5,032 bases of DNA, taken from positions 1 to 5,032 of IMG/VR virus record IMGVR_UViG_3300020030_000096, one strand, 5' to 3'. Made by a program: the position numbers and the translations under genes. The notes under the pieces were generated by a model. That model saw nothing but the letters and a program-made list of their open reading frames with translations. It was not told the DNA's origin and did no database searches. Source of the stretch: a virus. The number at the start of each line of letters is the position of its first letter. The stretch's first letter is position 1. This document shows positions 1-5,032 of this stretch, piece after piece.

Positions 1-121
1 CCACGCGAGGACTGATTAGAAGAATCTCCAGTGTTGCGCCCGCGTCTGTACTTAGACTTCGGACTTAGCAGGCGCGGGCGCTTTGGTGTCCGGGTCGAAC
101 GGAGGAACGAAAGCATTTGCA
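1..121. repeat. Terminal redundancy (circular-genome assembly overlap), identical to 4912-5032
   Basis: Base-by-base comparison shows 1-121 equals 4912-5032 exactly (offset 4911). The junction falls inside a hairpin loop and next to the 3' end of a gene, which fits a linearised circle rather than a biological terminal repeat. Confidence 0.95.
36..81. other. GC-clamp hairpin spanning the stop codon of the VP5-like gene (second copy at 4947-4992)
   Basis: Arm 36-44 GCGCCCGCG pairs perfectly with 73-81 CGCGGGCGC (9 G:C pairs). The stem extends 46-48/69-71 after one T/G mismatch. The 20-nt loop (49-68) reads t-ACTTAG-ACTTCGG-ACTTAG, three tandem ACTT units. Confidence 0.7.
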
Positions 122-345
122 GCAGCAACCTGCGTCGGAGCACAAGCTACAAGCTCGCCAGTCTCGTCAGAATACTGACCAATTTCGTAAAGGAAAAAAT
201 CGTCTGGATGCTGACCAACGGTAGTACGACTATCGCGAACGAGATCAGAAAAAGACCGAGATGCATCAGCAGCAGAACGACTGAAAAACGGCGTATTAAA
301 AACCTGAAGTTTAGAGTCGAAAACGGAAAAAACTTTAAGGATCAT
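52..345 (-). CDS. VP5: VP5-like small nonstructural protein of gokushoviruses (97 aa)
   Basis: Complete ORF with ATG at 345-343 and TAA at 54-52. The N-terminus MILKVFSVFDSKLQVFNTPFF...RSFSDLV...HPDDFFLYEIGQYSDETGEL matches my recollection of the conserved pattern (M..K.F.V.D.K...F..PFF...A.R.F......HP.DF.L.EIG.fDd.tG) of the small protein found next to VP4 in gokushoviruses. Its ATG overlaps the VP4 stop as ATGA. Codons are rich in third-position T, like the other genes. Confidence 0.75.
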   Translation of the reverse strand: MILKVFSVFDSKLQVFNTPFFSRSAADASRSFSDLVRDSRTTVGQHPDDFFLYEIGQYSDETGELVACAPTQVAAANAFVPPFDPDTKAPAPAKSEV

Positions 346-1259
346 GATTGATTCTCTTCCATAACGCGTCTGAGTTTAGCAGCTTTCAATTCTTGGACGC
401 GTTCACGAACTGAAAGACGATGAGGTGAAGCTTCACCAGTATCTTCAAAATCGCGACCTCGCTTTTCGCGCAATCGCTTAATCTCTTCATAGCGAACAAT
501 ATCAGAACGCTCCAACAACTTATCAAAATAAGCTGGAGGGTTCATCATAATCTTTTCACTAAGAATAAGTCGATCATTAGTATAAATATCAGTCATGTAC
601 TTTTCACAGAAGTCATGACCAATGCCAGGTTTGAGCGAGCAATGACAAAATTCAGCAACTTTACCGTCATAATGCTCAAGCTTCAAAGGACCTGTAATTT
701 TCTTCGTAACATAACGAGCGACGTAAGCGGCAGTCTCAAAGTTGACTGAACCAATCGAACTAAAACCATACGGCCAAAGCTTCTCAAGCGTTGCACTGCG
801 ATAAAGGTTATTGCCTCGACGAATAGACCAGAGCTTTTTATCAACAAAAGTCACGCCAAAAATAACGGCGTGATAATGAGGACGTCCAAGCTTATCGCCA
901 TATTCACCGCACATGAAAAAACGAAGCTGTTGACCAAAACGACTCATGAAGTACTTACGCATACGCTTCATGAACAACTGAAAGTGCTCGTAATGAAGTG
1001 AAGCATCGGCAGGCAAATGAGCATCATCATAAGTCAGCGTAAGAAACATGTTGTTCTTATGTGACTTAGCTTCAACAACACATCGAGCAGCCCATTCACG
1101 AGACTTAGAAAGTCGACAGCCAATACATTGACCGCAAGGAATTTTGAACTCAGAAAAAGGAATCGCTTTGGAAGAATCAAAAGTTATGGCATTGCGATTG
1201 CCATTCTTGGTCTTTGTACCAGCCAGACGATAGGCAGTTATTGGGTGATAGCAAGGCAT
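342..1259 (-). CDS. VP4: VP4 replication initiation protein (HUH rolling-circle endonuclease), 305 aa from ATG 1259; ORF open to an in-frame TTG at 1271 (309 aa)
   Basis: Rolling-circle Rep motifs are present in order: motif I FLTLTY, motif II (HUH) RPHYHAVIFG, motif III with catalytic Tyr AAYVARYVTKK. The Cys cluster PCGQCIGCRLSKSREWAARC is typical of microvirus VP4. The N-terminus MPCYHPITAYR is typical of the family, so ATG 1259 is preferred over TTG 1271. No Shine-Dalgarno precedes either start. Confidence 0.93.
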   Translation of the reverse strand: MPCYHPITAYRLAGTKTKNGNRNAITFDSSKAIPFSEFKIPCGQCIGCRLSKSREWAARCVVEAKSHKNNMFLTLTYDDAHLPADASLHYEHFQLFMKRMRKYFMSRFGQQLRFFMCGEYGDKLGRPHYHAVIFGVTFVDKKLWSIRRGNNLYRSATLEKLWPYGFSSIGSVNFETAAYVARYVTKKITGPLKLEHYDGKVAEFCHCSLKPGIGHDFCEKYMTDIYTNDRLILSEKIMMNPPAYFDKLLERSDIVRYEEIKRLREKRGRDFEDTGEASPHRLSVRERVQELKAAKLRRVMEENQS

Positions 1260-1468
1260 TTTTCGAGACAAGCCATATGCAATTCACGAAGAATCGTTTC
1301 ACGAGTAGAGCGAGAACGAACTTGGAAAGAAATTAAAGAAGTCCAAGGACGGTCGCGATAAAGCGTCCAAGTCACGAGCTTGCGACGACCAACATAAGTC
1401 GATTCGCCAGGCACAAGCCAACAGACACCAAAATCCTTAAGGGTAAGACGAAAAGCCGCGGAAGCCAT
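1238..1468 (-). CDS. Orphan hypothetical protein, 76 aa from ATG 1468 (ORF track starts it at TTG 1477, 79 aa)
   Basis: Sense-strand ORF filling the VP8-VP4 gap. About 40 of 76 codons end in T and Arg is mostly CGT, the same bias as VP1, VP8 and the other clear genes. It ends 22 nt inside VP4, which lacks its own SD, so it may couple VP4 translation. It has no SD of its own and I recognise no motif. Confidence 0.5.
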   Translation of the reverse strand: MASAAFRLTLKDFGVCWLVPGESTYVGRRKLVTWTLYRDRPWTSLISFQVRSRSTRETILRELHMACLEKCLAITQ

Positions 1469-1545: not shown

Positions 1546-1668
1546 TTAAATGCGGAAACCGCCACGCATTGGCGTAGCACGAGTATTCAAAGTCTTCGTA
1601 CGAGAAGCACCTTTACGGAAAATACGCTTAGATGCCTTACGAGAAAGCTTATGACGACGACGAAACAT
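1546..1668 (-). CDS. VP8: Small basic DNA-binding/packaging protein (phiX174 J analogue, gokushovirus VP8/ORF8-like), 40 aa
   Basis: Hand translation gives MFRRRHKLSRKASKRIFRKGASRTKTLNTRATPMRGGFRI, with 14 of 40 residues Arg/Lys. The C-terminal PMRGGxR motif is characteristic of these proteins. SD GAGG at 1677-1674 sits 5 nt before ATG 1668-1666; stop TAA at 1548-1546. It is too short to appear in the supplied ORF track. Confidence 0.85.
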   Translation of the reverse strand: MFRRRHKLSRKASKRIFRKGASRTKTLNTRATPMRGGFRI

Positions 1669-1675
1669 ATAAACC

Positions 1676-1774
1676 TCACTTTTTAAAAAGTTTCTTAACG
1701 GCTTTAAAGGCCTTCCAAATCGCAGAACCAGAGTTCAGCAAAACACTAACAAACTTTAAAATCGCATCTATCAT
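1676..1774 (-). CDS. Predicted 32-aa cationic amphipathic micro-protein MIDAILKFVSVLLNSGSAIWKAFKAVKKLFKK
   Basis: ATG 1774-1772 overlaps the VP2 stop TGA 1773-1771 (ATGA coupling). Its own stop TGA 1678-1676 is embedded in the SD of VP8. It fills an otherwise unexplained 102-nt gap in a compact genome, and 14 of 32 codons end in T. It corresponds to the C-terminal half of track ORF 1676..1867. There is no separate SD. Confidence 0.45.
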   Translation of the reverse strand: MIDAILKFVSVLLNSGSAIWKAFKAVKKLFKK

Positions 1775-2391
1775 TTCGCAAGACGAGCAGCACCAACAGC
1801 GGAATTTACAACCGGAGCAGATGTGCCGAACGGATTCAAAAGTTGCATCCATTGGCCGAAAGACCAAGCTCCAGAGTGATTTTTCATATAGTCAAAGGCC
1901 ATTTTGTGTCTTTCAGTCTCTAGCGCAGAATTAGCAGTCTTAAGCTTCTCTTGAGCCCATTGCTCTTTAAGAATGTAATTAGTCAACGCTTGAGTAGCAA
2001 CGGCTTCAAGAGAACGATTAGCTTCAAAATCAACACGCTTTTCCTCAGTTTTATTCAAAGCAGTCTGACTTTCAGCCTGACGAGCTGAAGAAACGCTCTG
2101 CTGTGTCTGAGCTTTGATCAAATCTTCCTGAGACCTGCCAAGAGAGGCTTCAACAGCCTTGGCAGACGCACCAGAGACATCAGGAGCCTCGATGATAGGA
2201 GCATTACCAGGAGCACCAGAACCTCCAGTTGCAGTCAGTATTGGATTAAGACCTGCTTTACGCAAGTCATCAACTTCCCACAGATGTCGATTCTGCATCA
2301 CCTCTTTCTGATGCTTCCAATTGAAATAAGAAGCAAGAGCAGAAGTACCAATACTAGCAGCACCACCAGCTAAAGCAGTCCAAGCTGACAT
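1771..2391 (-). CDS. VP2: VP2 minor capsid / DNA pilot protein (206 aa)
   Basis: It sits immediately downstream of VP1. It has a Gly/Ala/Ser-rich N-terminus and the conserved VP2 core ...QNRHLWEVDDLRKAGLNPILTATGG... (the xxDLkaAGLNPxL signature of gokushovirus VP2). AGGA lies about 9 nt upstream of ATG 2391-2389. Confidence 0.85.
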   Translation of the reverse strand: MSAWTALAGGAASIGTSALASYFNWKHQKEVMQNRHLWEVDDLRKAGLNPILTATGGSGAPGNAPIIEAPDVSGASAKAVEASLGRSQEDLIKAQTQQSVSSARQAESQTALNKTEEKRVDFEANRSLEAVATQALTNYILKEQWAQEKLKTANSALETERHKMAFDYMKNHSGAWSFGQWMQLLNPFGTSAPVVNSAVGAARLAK

Positions 2392-2392
2392 A

Positions 2393-2455
2393 TCACTGTC
2401 CTAAAGCAAAGATAACGATCACACCTACAGCAGCAAGCCAAAAAACTAAAGCCAT
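2393..2455 (-). CDS. Predicted 20-aa hydrophobic (single transmembrane span) micro-protein MALVFWLAAVGVIVIFALGQ
   Basis: Hand translation of the VP1-VP2 spacer. SD GAGG (2464-2461) sits 5 nt before ATG 2455-2453, as good as or better than the sites of the other genes. Stop TGA 2395-2393 lies 1 nt before the VP2 ATG, and the VP2 SD sits inside its last codons. 10 of 20 codons end in T. There are no charged residues, and 17 consecutive apolar residues (A2-L18) could approximately span a membrane. Confidence 0.55.
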   Translation of the reverse strand: MALVFWLAAVGVIVIFALGQ

Positions 2456-2465
2456 ATCAACCTCA

Positions 2466-4097
2466 TTAAAAATGATCAACCAGACCAGGAACAGAATAGA
2501 CAGGCATCGGACGAGCACACTTCAAACGAATATACGAGTCAAACAAAAATTGCGGTTCACTAGTCACAGCAACAACTCGCTCGACAGGCGGATTATCTTG
2601 AATAAATTGAGACGAAAGAGCTGGCAAAGAGCTGAACTTCTGCGCTAAATGCCAACTATCCAACGGCTGAGGATCAGTTGAGCGGAATTTCCCTGTAATC
2701 TGGCCGGGATAATAACGATACTCAGCGTAGCGTTCTTGATAACCAAAAACCTTGTCATCATCAACAGTGCCTTGCGCATAAATTTCTTTATTGAGAACAG
2801 CTTGTTCGCCAAGGTGCGCAAGCACAGGCCAATAAAAATCAAAGCGACCTTGGCGTGACCACATGCGATTCAGACCTTGCTGGTAAGTCAGGTCAGCACG
2901 AACATTCACAAAACCAAAGACATAGCCGTGCTCGACAAAAGACTTCGAGAAACCATGGAACGAATCTGAGACCACACCAAAAGCAGCCAGATTTCCTTGC
3001 GGAGTCGTCTCATTAGTAGCTGAGGTCTGCTGAACAGGGTTGATCGAAATACGAGCAGATGAACCGCCAAGGTATTCAGGACGTTGCAAACGAGCATCAG
3101 GCGAGATCACGCCGAAGTGAGAGCGAAGAATTTCTGTGTATCGCGTACCGCCGCGAGCGTCGCGTTCATAAAGCTTTTGGATCTGGAAAGCTTGACGGAG
3201 ATCATTAATTGAGATCGGCGTAGCTGTTGAAAGGTCAGCAGTACCAGAAAAGCTAAGGGCAGGATCTTTCCAGCGCAAAATACCACGCGCGGCTTGATGC
3301 TGAGAGCCAGCATCAAATTTAGCCTTCACGGTGTCAAAACCAAAATTGTTAGTATCGCCAGTAAGCGACAAAGAGCCAATGGAAATTTGATTCGTTTGAA
3401 TCAGATCAGTCGAAAAATCAAAAAGAGGAGAACCATTGCCAACAACGCTACCTGAAAGCGAAGCACTACCACCAATTGAAATTTCTACACCTGGGCCTTT
3501 TTGCGGCCACGGCAAACAAGACGTGAAATAGTCATGACGCTTACCACGACGAACCAAACTGTAATCAGAAAAATTATCTGGACCATCACCGGTCGGAACT
3601 TTCAAAGATTCTTGAAGATTCTCATCTCTAAACCATTCATTGAAAATGAGATTGTAAGCGCGGAAAGGAAGCGCATTTACTTTCAAAGCTTTATTGACAT
3701 TCGTCGGAAGACCGAAATAATCCCAAAGCGTCTGATTCTGAACATTCGTACCAGAGACCGTCGGAATTAAAAAGTCTGTTGAATCAGTTGGATTCTTCTG
3801 CTCACCATTGAACTTCTGCCAATTGTCCCAAACAAGCCGATTGGGAACAAAGAAGAAGAAAGTCTCCAGATAAAGATTGTCCATAAAGGGAACAATCGGA
3901 GTAGCTAAACGAGCAAACAAAGTAGCTGTCAGCTTAAAAGAATCTCCTGGAAGAACTTCATCGACATAAAAAGGTACAAGATAACCAGAATTAAAAGTTG
4001 TCTTATAACCATGAGAGCGGTCAAAAACCGATCGAGGAATCTGAGTCGAAGGAATCTGAGAGAACAGATGCTGAGTAGAACGATTAACAGATGACAT
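2466..4097 (-). CDS. VP1: VP1 major capsid protein (543 aa), Microviridae F-protein family, gokushovirus type
   Basis: The size and N-terminus (...HLFSQIPSTQIPRSVFDRSHGYKTTFNSGYLVPFYVDEVLPGDSF...) match the conserved gokushovirus VP1 opening (RS.FD.S...KTTF..G.L.P....EVLPGD.F). An in-frame TAG immediately precedes ATG 4097-4095. Third-position T bias is strong. Confidence 0.95.
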   Translation of the reverse strand: MSSVNRSTQHLFSQIPSTQIPRSVFDRSHGYKTTFNSGYLVPFYVDEVLPGDSFKLTATLFARLATPIVPFMDNLYLETFFFFVPNRLVWDNWQKFNGEQKNPTDSTDFLIPTVSGTNVQNQTLWDYFGLPTNVNKALKVNALPFRAYNLIFNEWFRDENLQESLKVPTGDGPDNFSDYSLVRRGKRHDYFTSCLPWPQKGPGVEISIGGSASLSGSVVGNGSPLFDFSTDLIQTNQISIGSLSLTGDTNNFGFDTVKAKFDAGSQHQAARGILRWKDPALSFSGTADLSTATPISINDLRQAFQIQKLYERDARGGTRYTEILRSHFGVISPDARLQRPEYLGGSSARISINPVQQTSATNETTPQGNLAAFGVVSDSFHGFSKSFVEHGYVFGFVNVRADLTYQQGLNRMWSRQGRFDFYWPVLAHLGEQAVLNKEIYAQGTVDDDKVFGYQERYAEYRYYPGQITGKFRSTDPQPLDSWHLAQKFSSLPALSSQFIQDNPPVERVVAVTSEPQFLFDSYIRLKCARPMPVYSVPGLVDHF

Positions 4098-4107
4098 CTA
4101 AAAATCC

Positions 4108-4118
4108 ATATATATATA
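4108..4118. repeat. (AT)n microsatellite-like tract atatatatata between the upstream hairpin/T-run and the VP1 start
   Basis: Read directly from the sequence. It lies 11 nt upstream of the VP1 ATG on the sense strand. Confidence 0.8.
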
Positions 4119-4124
4119 GATAAC

Positions 4125-4164
4125 AAAAAAGGCGGCTAAGTCCAAAAGCCTCGACTCAGCCGCC
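4125..4164 (-). terminator. Intrinsic-terminator-like hairpin plus T6, 28 nt upstream of the VP1 start
   Basis: Arms 4131-4142 and 4153-4164 form 11 Watson-Crick pairs. The single A/C mismatch on the + strand becomes a G.U wobble in minus-sense RNA, giving a continuous 12-bp stem only in the sense transcript. The loop is 10 nt. Sense-strand TTTTTT (4130-4125) follows; no T-run follows on the + strand. Confidence 0.6.
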
Positions 4165-4216
4165 TTACGGATCAAAAACCCAAGACTCCGGAAAGCTTTA
4201 TCACCGTACAACGAAG

Positions 4217-4244
4217 CATATACCACAAAGCAAAGAGAAAGCAA
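4217..4244 (-). promoter_or_regulatory. Weak candidate sigma70-type promoter (sense strand): -35 TTGCTT (4244-4239), 16-nt spacer, extended -10 TGgTATATG (4225-4217)
   Basis: By-eye match only: -35 is 3/6 and -10 is 4/6, plus a TGn extension. The host is unknown. Confidence 0.2.
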
Positions 4245-4256
4245 ACATCGAAGCAA
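4228..4256. repeat. Three helically phased copies of AAGCAA (sense TTGCTT) at 4228, 4239 and 4251
   Basis: The first two copies extend to AAAGCAAA (4227-4234 and 4238-4245). Spacing is 11 and 12 nt, about one helical turn. The array ends 10 nt from the downstream direct repeat of the candidate origin. Confidence 0.6.
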
Positions 4257-4265
4257 TGCGTTAAA

Positions 4266-4282
4266 TACCCGCGCGCAGATCG
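4266..4282. repeat. Direct repeat copy 1 (tacccgCgcgcaGatcg) flanking the long hairpin
   Basis: 15 of 17 positions are identical to 4332-4348. Both differences are transitions. Both copies are followed by GAG (copy 2 after a 2-nt insertion). Confidence 0.85.
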
Positions 4283-4288
4283 GAGTGT

Positions 4289-4329
4289 CACCGGAACCAG
4301 TTACATCAAGTAAGTAACTGGTTCCGGTG
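4289..4329 (-). other. Perfect 16-bp stem / 9-nt loop hairpin; candidate viral-strand (rolling-circle) origin
   Basis: Arm 4289-4304 caccggaaccagttac is the exact reverse complement of 4314-4329. The loop on the sense strand reads TTACTTGAT, which contains ACTTGAT, the heptamer spanning the gpA cleavage site in the phiX174 origin (CAACTTG/ATATTAATAAC). Confidence 0.55.
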
Positions 4330-4331
4330 TG

Positions 4332-4348
4332 TACCCGTGCGCAAATCG
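4332..4348. repeat. Direct repeat copy 2 (tacccgTgcgcaAatcg) flanking the long hairpin
   Basis: See copy 1. The offset between copies is 66 nt. Confidence 0.85.
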
Positions 4349-4359
4349 TTGAGATATCT

Positions 4360-4389
4360 AAAAAAAAAGATCGCCGCAAACGGGCGATC
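4360..4389 (-). terminator. Rho-independent terminator downstream of VP3
   Basis: GC-rich stem GATCGCC (4369-4375) pairs with GGCGATC (4383-4389), with a possible eighth pair, and a short loop. On the sense strand it is followed immediately by nine T (4368-4360). Confidence 0.75.
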
Positions 4390-4401
4390 GAAAGGATTTT
4401 G

Positions 4402-4422
4402 AAGGGATGGAAACCATCCCTT
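4402..4422. other. Perfect 9-bp / 3-nt-loop hairpin just after the VP3 stop
   Basis: AAGGGATGG aaa CCATCCCTT. No T-run follows on either strand. Confidence 0.7.
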
Positions 4423-4439
4423 ATATGAGTTATTAGTAA

Positions 4440-4883
4440 TTACCCGTTGTTGTCAGAAGAAGACGGTTTAACATCATCAGCGGACGCTGCAGAAGCAGTA
4501 GGCTCAGGAGTCTTAGCTTCCTCAGGAGCGACAAAACCAAGCTCTTCAAGCTTAGATTTTTGCACAGGATCATTAAGCGCGTGAAGGAATTCAGAAGGTG
4601 AGTTATTAAACGAAGCACGAACATGAGAAGGAAGGCTTTCAAAGTATTCAGTTGCACGAGCAACAGCATTCTGAGCAGTCTGAAAATCTGTGACATCAGA
4701 AAAGTCACCAAACTGAATTGGGCGCTTCGGTGAAAAAGGATCAGTCAAAAAACCGGTCTCAGCATACTTTTGCAAGATATTGTCGATCATGGTCTCATCT
4801 TTAAAGTGCTGCTGAGTCATCGACGGTTCAGTAAAGACAATGCCTTCAGCGGTAGCGTTTGTGTGATTAATTTTGAACTTCAT
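4440..4883 (-). CDS. VP3: VP3 internal scaffolding protein (147 aa)
   Basis: From ATG 4883-4881, preceded by GGAG (SD) with a 5-nt spacer. The sequence ...TQQHFKDETMIDNILQKYAETG...FGDFSDVTDFQTAQNAV..A.EYFESLPSHVRASFNNSPSEFL... matches the chlamydiaphage/gokushovirus VP3 scaffold pattern (Q.FKDE.DIN.I..K....G; FGDF...D...A; F..LP...R..F.N.P..FL). The 48-codon upstream extension in the ORF track crosses a terminator hairpin and the circular junction and is not credible. Confidence 0.88.
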   Translation of the reverse strand: MKFKINHTNATAEGIVFTEPSMTQQHFKDETMIDNILQKYAETGFLTDPFSPKRPIQFGDFSDVTDFQTAQNAVARATEYFESLPSHVRASFNNSPSEFLHALNDPVQKSKLEELGFVAPEEAKTPEPTASAASADDVKPSSSDNNG

Positions 4884-4896
4884 ATAAGCTCCATAT

Positions 4897-4924
4897 AAAA
4901 AAGTCCTCGCACCACGCGAGGACT
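4897..4924 (-). terminator. Rho-independent terminator after the VP5-like gene, abutting the VP3 ribosome-binding site (distal arm duplicated at 5-13)
   Basis: AGTCCTCGC (4902-4910) pairs perfectly with GCGAGGACT (4916-4924), with the 5-nt loop accac. The sense strand continues ...GGACTTTTTTATATGGAGCTTATATG, so the T-run runs straight into the VP3 SD and ATG. Confidence 0.7.
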
Positions 4925-5032
4925 GATTAGAAGAATCTCCAGTGTTGCGCCCGCGTCTGTACTTAGACTTCGGACTTAGCAGGCGCGGGCGCTTTGGTGT
5001 CCGGGTCGAACGGAGGAACGAAAGCATTTGCA
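4912..5032. repeat. Second copy of the terminal redundancy (identical to 1-121); includes a duplicate of the last 23 codons of the VP5-like gene (4963-5032) and of the GC-clamp hairpin (4947-4992)
   Basis: Exact identity with 1-121. Confidence 0.95.

Follow-up and report, generated by a model that had tools for sequence, protein, structure and literature searches.

Does the short gap between the genes for the DNA pilot protein VP2 and the small basic protein VP8 of a gokushovirus hold a gene of its own and, if so, what might a peptide of that size do for the phage? The window, by which we mean the whole stretch of DNA analysed here (5,032 nt, 44% GC), carries an exact 121-nt terminal repeat (positions 1..121 = 4912..5032) and therefore represents a circular gokushovirus genome of 4,911 nt assembled with overlap. 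Every gene lies on the minus strand, and the frame in the gap is referred to below as MID (Table 1). Six GenBank genomes, all from human samples, show 85–87% identity to the window over 81–95% of the length, and both MID and VP8 are unannotated in all six of these closest genomes. VP8, for which we use the name given in PMC7062461, matches phrog_10695 (E = 2.7e-12) and has homologues in 88 phage records.

Table 1. Features of the window that bear on MID and its surroundings (coordinates in nt of the window).
Feature	Coordinates	Strand	Remarks
VP5	52..345	minus	
VP4	342..1259	minus	
VP8	1546..1668	minus	40-aa basic J-like DNA-binding protein; downstream partner of MID
Shine-Dalgarno of VP8, AGTGAGGTT	1672..1680	minus	contains the MID stop TGA (1676-1678)
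MID peptide gene	1676..1774	minus	32 codons, stop included; MIDAILKFVSVLLNSGSAIWKAFKAVKKLFKK
ATGA, VP2 stop TGA overlapping MID start ATG	1771..1774	minus	GTGA in 12 versions
VP2 (DNA pilot protein)	1771..2391	minus	annotation of relatives; upstream partner of MID
20-aa hydrophobic ORF, MALVFWLAAVGVIVIFALGQ	2393..2455	minus	own Shine-Dalgarno (TGAGGT); possible, not obligatory partner of MID
VP1	2466..4097	minus	
VP3	4440..4883	minus	

Several features elsewhere in the genome were recorded in passing. Several hairpins lie in the VP3-VP1 intergenic region (4100..4440): inverted repeats of 16 nt (perfect; 4289-4329) and of 14 nt (4129-4166), and stems that resemble terminators, with a T-run, at 4369-4389 on the minus strand. 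An unannotated ORF between VP8 and VP4 (1238..1468, minus strand, about 76–79 aa, TTG-extended to 1477) overlaps the VP4 start and is intact in 56/61 relatives at about 82–84% identity, with no match in Pfam or PHROG. Overprinted on VP8 is a hydrophobic ORF of 30 aa (MRFICFVVVISFLVRHLSVFSVKVLLVRRL; 1587..1679, minus strand) with a GTG start inside the VP8 Shine-Dalgarno; all but one of 61 relatives keep it open, probably as a by-product of the Arg codons of VP8 and of the conservation of VP8. A survey of overprinted ORFs for alternative lysis candidates gave no discrimination at about 85% genome identity.

The boundaries of MID are tied to both of its neighbours. Its ATG (1774-1772, minus strand) overlaps the VP2 stop TGA (1773-1771) as ATGA, and its own stop TGA (1678-1676) falls within AAGTGAGGT, 7 nt ahead of the VP8 ATG (1668-1666). 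An earlier reading made from the letters of the window (the sequence-only reading) had described the start overlap (1774-1771) and the stop embedded in the VP8 Shine-Dalgarno in these terms, along with a VP2-VP8 gap of 102 nt (1669..1770) and a like ATGA at the VP4/VP5 junction (342-345), and each of these statements agrees with the sequence. In the window the frame is also open upstream of the ATG, back to a TTG at 1867. This upstream extension is not conserved, several relatives having a TAA immediately before the start, and since one close relative combines a GTG start with a TAA directly upstream, the longer open frame is not part of the MID gene; querying with this longer frame (63 aa) returned no matches. 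We also rejected an origin of MID as a C-terminal extension of VP2 made by frameshift, because the upstream frame is unconserved and TAA abuts the start in GTG copies, and as a split-off VP2 C-terminus, because no match to the family HMM turned up in other VP2 proteins. By eye, the C-terminus of the window's VP2, FGQWMQLLNPFG, resembles the extreme VP2 C-termini GELLRWMP of L097 and L103.

An open frame of 32 codons is unremarkable by itself and well within chance, and the question accordingly becomes one of conservation as a gene; that conservation is beyond chance. MID was intact in 11/11 relatives found independently of its own sequence. Frame, length and both ends are kept in all six genome-level relatives, and 5/5 relatives found via VP2 have MID intact, two of them at 56–57% VP2 identity. 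Degenerate DNA patterns, which required GAR at MID codon 21, recovered it from about 60 IMG/VR and 26 metagenome contigs, mostly labelled human gut. None of the 72 distinct nucleotide versions of MID contains a stop or a frameshift. A single aberrant copy was found, a version of 47 aa on the ENA contig P0002 (542 nt) whose sequence is divergent beyond residue 25; it may be disrupted or a chimera of the assembly.

Substitutions within the gene follow its own frame, in which dN/dS is 0.09–0.125, versus 1.0 and 1.37 in the other two sense frames. For codons 2–21, which were unconstrained by the first search patterns, pooled Nei-Gojobori estimates gave a dN/dS of 0.125 with pS = 0.36. Synonymous sites are free to vary (pS 0.33–0.36), and variable sites number 13, 5 and 25 at codon positions 1, 2 and 3, respectively. 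Leu6 is encoded by TTA, CTT and TTG, and Arg14 by CGC, CGT and AGG; all four codons occur at Ser17 and likewise at Ala18, and Ile2 and Asp3 are retained by synonymous codons in other lineages. Such synonymous codon switches are explained only by selection on the peptide in that frame. MID is also far more conserved than VP2, with pN of 0.04–0.06 against 0.20 for the VP2 C-terminus. The reading frame, length and amino-acid sequence of MID are under purifying selection, and we regard it as almost certainly a real translated gene. The sequence-only reading had asked for a comparison of the VP2-VP8 spacer (frame conservation, dN/dS) as a check on its proposed 32-aa micro-ORF, and that comparison (frame intact in 11/11, dN/dS about 0.1, 72 intact versions, conserved ends) upholds the micro-ORF as a genuine gene.

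Both ends of the gene are fixed: the start on the VP2 stop, as RTGA, and the stop on the VP8 initiation region. RTGA is present at the VP2/MID junction in all MID copies, and the VP2 stop is TGA in 69/69 genomes. TGA stops are found only at overlaps (VP2/MID, MID/VP8 Shine-Dalgarno and VP4/VP5), and VP1, VP3, VP5 and VP8 end in TAA. No Shine-Dalgarno-like motif precedes MID in any of the 64 copies with an ATG start. GAGG occurs at -13..-10 in 11 of the 12 copies with a GTG start (e.g., among L001, L024 and L035), where it arises from synonymous VP2 codons (Arg AGG, Leu TTG); these copies are probably one lineage and were therefore counted as one event. The duplex between the VP8 Shine-Dalgarno and the anti-Shine-Dalgarno has an energy of -8.5 kcal/mol, and the element is invariant in 53 sequences. 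A conserved start placed on the upstream stop, with no Shine-Dalgarno of its own, marks MID as a translationally coupled gene, one whose translation presumably depends on that of VP2. Ribosomes ending VP2 would re-initiate on the overlapping MID ATG and, because ATG copies are preceded by no Shine-Dalgarno, re-initiation would yield MID late and in amounts well below those of VP2. Ribosomes ending MID would then stop within or beside the VP8 start, preserving an ancestral VP2-to-VP8 coupling.

Could this pattern arise without a functional peptide? Conservation might in principle come from a spacer element acting as RNA or DNA, or from an antisense frame (plus strand, 1632..1934), with MID not being a sense-strand gene at all, which we find hardly credible. 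A spacer element was discarded on the freely varying synonymous sites, on RNA folding no better than that of shuffles (z = -0.34) and on a search of Rfam that gave no match to the spacer. The antisense frame is open in all 53 of 53 sequences, with dN/dS of 0.14–0.21, but it shares third codon positions with MID and is therefore also open, as expected of a by-product of the sense ORF; moreover, its ends vary (46–87 codons), its dN/dS is higher than that of MID, it has no Shine-Dalgarno, and the strand on which it lies holds no other gene in any relative, and we set it aside. A different possibility accepts translation and denies the peptide a function, so that MID would serve as a mere ribosome relay from VP2 to the VP8 start. 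The tight overlaps at both MID ends in three lineages fit such a relay, as does the direct adjacency of VP2 and VP8 in genomes without MID. A relay would, however, require just an open frame, whereas the amino acids of MID are under strong purifying selection, evident in both dN/dS and the synonymous codon switches, and VP8 owns a strong Shine-Dalgarno, making a functionless relay highly improbable.

Beyond the immediate clade, a tblastn search and a full HMMER scan recovered MID homologues of 36–39 aa (MIDTIVKFVQTLLTGCSAIWEAFKAVKNLFKGKKNG, MIDTIVNFVKTLLVGASSIWEAFKAVKKLFKGDKNGKTT) from viruses of chicken and dog and from one ENA contig, the full scan yielding three representatives. A 28-aa homologue, MIDKVLSLFGNLIKAVWSIVEFIKGVKK, is encoded in KT264806 and MG945561 of the bird/dog lineage, and its ungapped alignment to MID reaches z = 5.0, a value exceeded by 0.1% of shuffles. 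In every lineage the homologue lies between VP2 and VP8, overlapping or abutting both. The chain in KT264806 runs VP2, ATGA, 31-aa hydrophobic ORF, ATGA, 28-aa homologue, ATGA, VP8. Closer inspection of this genome (L102 / L145, bird faeces) revealed two overlapping hydrophobic 31-aa ORFs between VP2 and the 28-aa homologue (2283..2461), at 2283..2378 and 2287..2382, of which the first has ATGA overlaps on both sides.

MID was missing from 9 of 10 other gokushoviruses sampled via VP8 and from the lytic EC6098, where VP2 and VP8 are spaced by 2 nt. Among these other gokushoviruses, the VP2-VP8 gap is 2–18 nt in four records and EC6098, or an ORF-free 57 or 96 nt, one such gap holding hairpins; two records have unrelated small ORFs in the gap, and one has a different gene upstream of VP8. 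MID was accordingly inserted, in certain lineages only, into a VP2-VP8 junction that was ancestrally tight, and the insertion kept the coupling on both sides. The same genomic gap corresponds to the VP2-VP8 "non-coding region" of enterogokushoviruses, which is among their most variable regions (PMC7062461); in the MID clade, unlike there, the gap is a conserved gene, and in EC6098 it is just those 2 nt. Of the unrelated small gap ORFs, in KT264831 (L104) and PP511568 (L100), one encodes a strongly basic peptide of 22 aa, MSKFRRFLRTYKKMRRIFKRKR, and the other, of 60 aa, includes a hydrophobic stretch and overlaps the start of VP8. The gap seems to be a hot spot for small accessory genes.

The consensus form of MID occurs on 533 public contigs, including TPA entries such as DAH88296.1, and the databases carry it already, solely as a nameless "hypothetical protein." Neither Pfam nor Foldseek returned a match to MID, and the best PHROG matches (E = 0.03–0.27) were to families of unknown function; judged by these searches, MID belongs to no described family. 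A PDB match to designed dTor repeat proteins (E = 1e-14) is an artefact in which about 4 bits per repeat are summed over 9–12 identical repeats, and matches to endolysins (phrog_3572, E = 0.038; a Synechococcus phage peptidase M23, E = 2) were dismissed as chance level. A prophage and host scan of genome contigs gave chance matches only, for example to group II intron proteins, E. coli genomes had no MID match, and the metagenome contigs carrying MID are all phage-sized.

Over all 32 residues, the hydrophobic moment of MID is 0.49 at 100 degrees, compared with 0.17 +/- 0.09 for shuffles (z = 3.7), and 0.02–0.04% of shuffles exceed it; the hydrophobic-moment calculation that had been suggested as a check thus finds the peptide amphipathic over its whole length. 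AlphaFold2, run on the single sequence (mean pLDDT 79.5), predicts helices at residues 2–13 and 18–30 with a break at NSGS. The helix-hinge-helix architecture put forward in the sequence-only reading is retained on this prediction, but its simply hydrophobic N-terminal helix is not, the N-terminal half being amphipathic too (moment about 0.5). Likewise, the net charge of +6 given there applies to the minority K21 sub-lineage to which the window belongs, whereas most copies have E21 and a charge of +4. No canonical transmembrane segment was detected in MID, its maximum Kyte-Doolittle average over 19 residues being 1.19–1.47 against a threshold of 1.6; on the same measure, the neighbouring 20-aa ORF scores 2.64 and TisB 2.5. 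Hydrophobic positions of MID exchange solely with other hydrophobics, and polar positions are free, including the E21K charge reversal. N10 and N14 change jointly to D10 and R14, at i and i+4 spacing, and the invariant residues include D3, F8, L13, S17, W20, A22, F23, K24, A25 and K27.

MID thus has a predicted helix, a moment above chance and a positive charge, the physico-chemical properties of a cationic amphipathic alpha-helical peptide. Given that it is both strongly amphipathic and cationic, a membrane-active peptide is a reasonable reading. The computed moment and hydrophobicity values resemble those of delta-lysin, PSM-alpha3, magainin and TisB. The sequence-only reading had gone further and joined MID with the 20-aa ORF on the other side of VP2 in a possible two-peptide module for membrane disruption. 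The two do co-occur frequently, the 20-aa ORF being present in 69/72 clade genomes, but obligate pairing fails: L017 and L056 keep MID without it, the same Shine-Dalgarno driving VP2 directly there, and the chicken/dog lineage has no such ORF at its VP1-VP2 junction. We treat this frequent but non-obligatory association as suggestive. A different small hydrophobic ORF is coupled directly upstream of the MID homologue in the bird/dog lineage. The other suggestion of the sequence-only reading was that MID may instead be a tail that binds nucleic acid, and it may indeed be one.

No lysis gene is known in gokushoviruses (PMC7062461), which are without a homologue of phiX174 E and of which only some have acquired peptidases (PMC7062461, PMC9239249). 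The best overall explanation, to which we assign a probability of roughly 45%, is that MID is a small, late, translationally coupled gene of an animal-gut gokushovirus lineage whose product acts on membranes in lysis or egress. Its 32 residues would form a helix, a hinge of small residues and a second helix, with an interfacial Trp that is conserved and a C-terminus rich in Lys. The peptide would most likely bind and perturb the host cytoplasmic or outer membrane, and its role would most likely be in lysis or egress, or in the control of their timing, in phages that have no inhibitor of peptidoglycan synthesis, no endolysin and no holin. Taken separately, the assignment of that role to membrane perturbation for lysis or egress is a tentative one. 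It is favoured by the physical chemistry of the peptide, by its presumed late, low and coupled expression, by the lack of a known gokushovirus lysis gene and by the precedent of phiKT gp28; against it stand the few lineages with MID, its absence from EC6098, a conservation tighter than that of VP2 and the lack of a canonical transmembrane segment. As MID is absent from EC6098 and from 9/10 sampled gokushoviruses, it cannot be a general gokushovirus solution to lysis. A more specific form of this reading, in which MID is a candidate delta-lysin-like, ribosome-coupled lysis or egress effector that permeabilises membranes and does not block cell-wall synthesis, perhaps with help from the small transmembrane ORFs beside VP2, is doubtful at present.

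The degree of conservation exceeds what a generic lipid-disrupting peptide would need, and MID may therefore have a specific protein partner. One such partner would be found in the virion, with MID as an accessory of virion structure or assembly, either a second J-like tether or a co-factor of packaging, that is produced alongside the pilot and DNA-binding proteins; its hydrophobic face would dock on the capsid interior, VP2 or VP8, and its Lys-rich C-terminus would contact the ssDNA. The location of MID between VP2 and VP8, the translational chaining to both, the basic C-terminus and the very high conservation all suit this role, yet we hold it to be unlikely: the net charge is just +4, the basic residues occupy one face of an amphipathic helix and do not form a disordered Arg/Lys tail like that of VP8, the E21K reversal is tolerated, and most gokushoviruses assemble without MID. 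Alternatively, the partner would be a defined host protein, such as a cell-wall precursor enzyme as for amurins, a defence protein or a receptor, which MID would inhibit specifically without acting on lipid. Small-phage single-gene lysis proteins are known to act on specific host proteins, a precedent that, with the strong conservation and many invariant residues of MID, speaks for an inhibitor; but substitutions in MID preserve amphipathicity and not particular polar-face side chains, and similarity to known families was not found, so that we rate a dedicated host inhibitor as quite improbable.

In guts and oceans, few ssDNA phages are as abundant as gokushoviruses; surveys of microvirus gene content usually discard very short ORFs. 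MID is conserved like core proteins, wired into the VP2-to-VP8 translation chain and endowed with the physical chemistry of a membrane-active peptide; for membrane action or lysis in a single lineage of gokushoviruses, it is a good candidate that can be tested at little cost. Were MID a lysis effector, Gokushovirinae would have their first identified lysis mechanism and ssDNA phages a new type of single-gene lysis, and the VP2-VP8 gap would prove to be a cradle of genes of this kind. An active MID would add a lysis mechanism to the subfamily and provide a new compact scaffold for antibacterial peptides. Even if MID proves inactive, it shows that conserved genes can reside in the "non-coding" VP2-VP8 gap, which deserves annotation.

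Among known systems is the phage lysis peptide phiKT gp28, or "disruptin," which is cationic and amphipathic (bioRxiv 10.1101/515445). Like MID, it is small and cationic, is predicted to form amphipathic helices and lacks an enzymatic domain, and it is proposed to act directly on the membrane at the end of infection, as we propose for MID. It differs in its length of 56 aa and in belonging to a tailed phage with a holin and an endolysin, neither of which is encoded in the MID genome, and the two show no sequence similarity. The lysis genes phiX174 E and MS2 L and other Sgl of ssRNA phages offer another parallel, since there, too, a tiny accessory gene is squeezed among essential genes in a very small genome. 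Translation of MS2 L, too, begins when ribosomes that have terminated close by re-initiate. Both E and L possess a genuine transmembrane domain together with characteristic motifs (Pro21 for E, a Leu-Ser motif for L), and they are overprinted on other genes, whereas MID is not overprinted, lacks the canonical transmembrane domain, at least one of which characterises an E- or L-type lysis protein or a holin, and has no similarity to E or L.

In size and shape, MID is like S. aureus delta-lysin, the phenol-soluble modulins and E. coli TisB, which are peptides of 22–32 aa with an amphipathic helix over the whole length and a Lys-rich C-terminus. These are of cellular origin, however, and because their alignment scores to MID are only marginally above those of shuffles (z = 2.2–2.5), the resemblance is confined to physical chemistry. 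Gokushovirus VP8 and phiX174 J are, like MID, small basic late proteins encoded beside the pilot-protein gene. VP8 is conserved across gokushoviral subfamilies (PMC9239249) and is Arg/Lys-rich throughout and non-amphipathic, whereas MID is hydrophobic, amphipathic and confined to few lineages.
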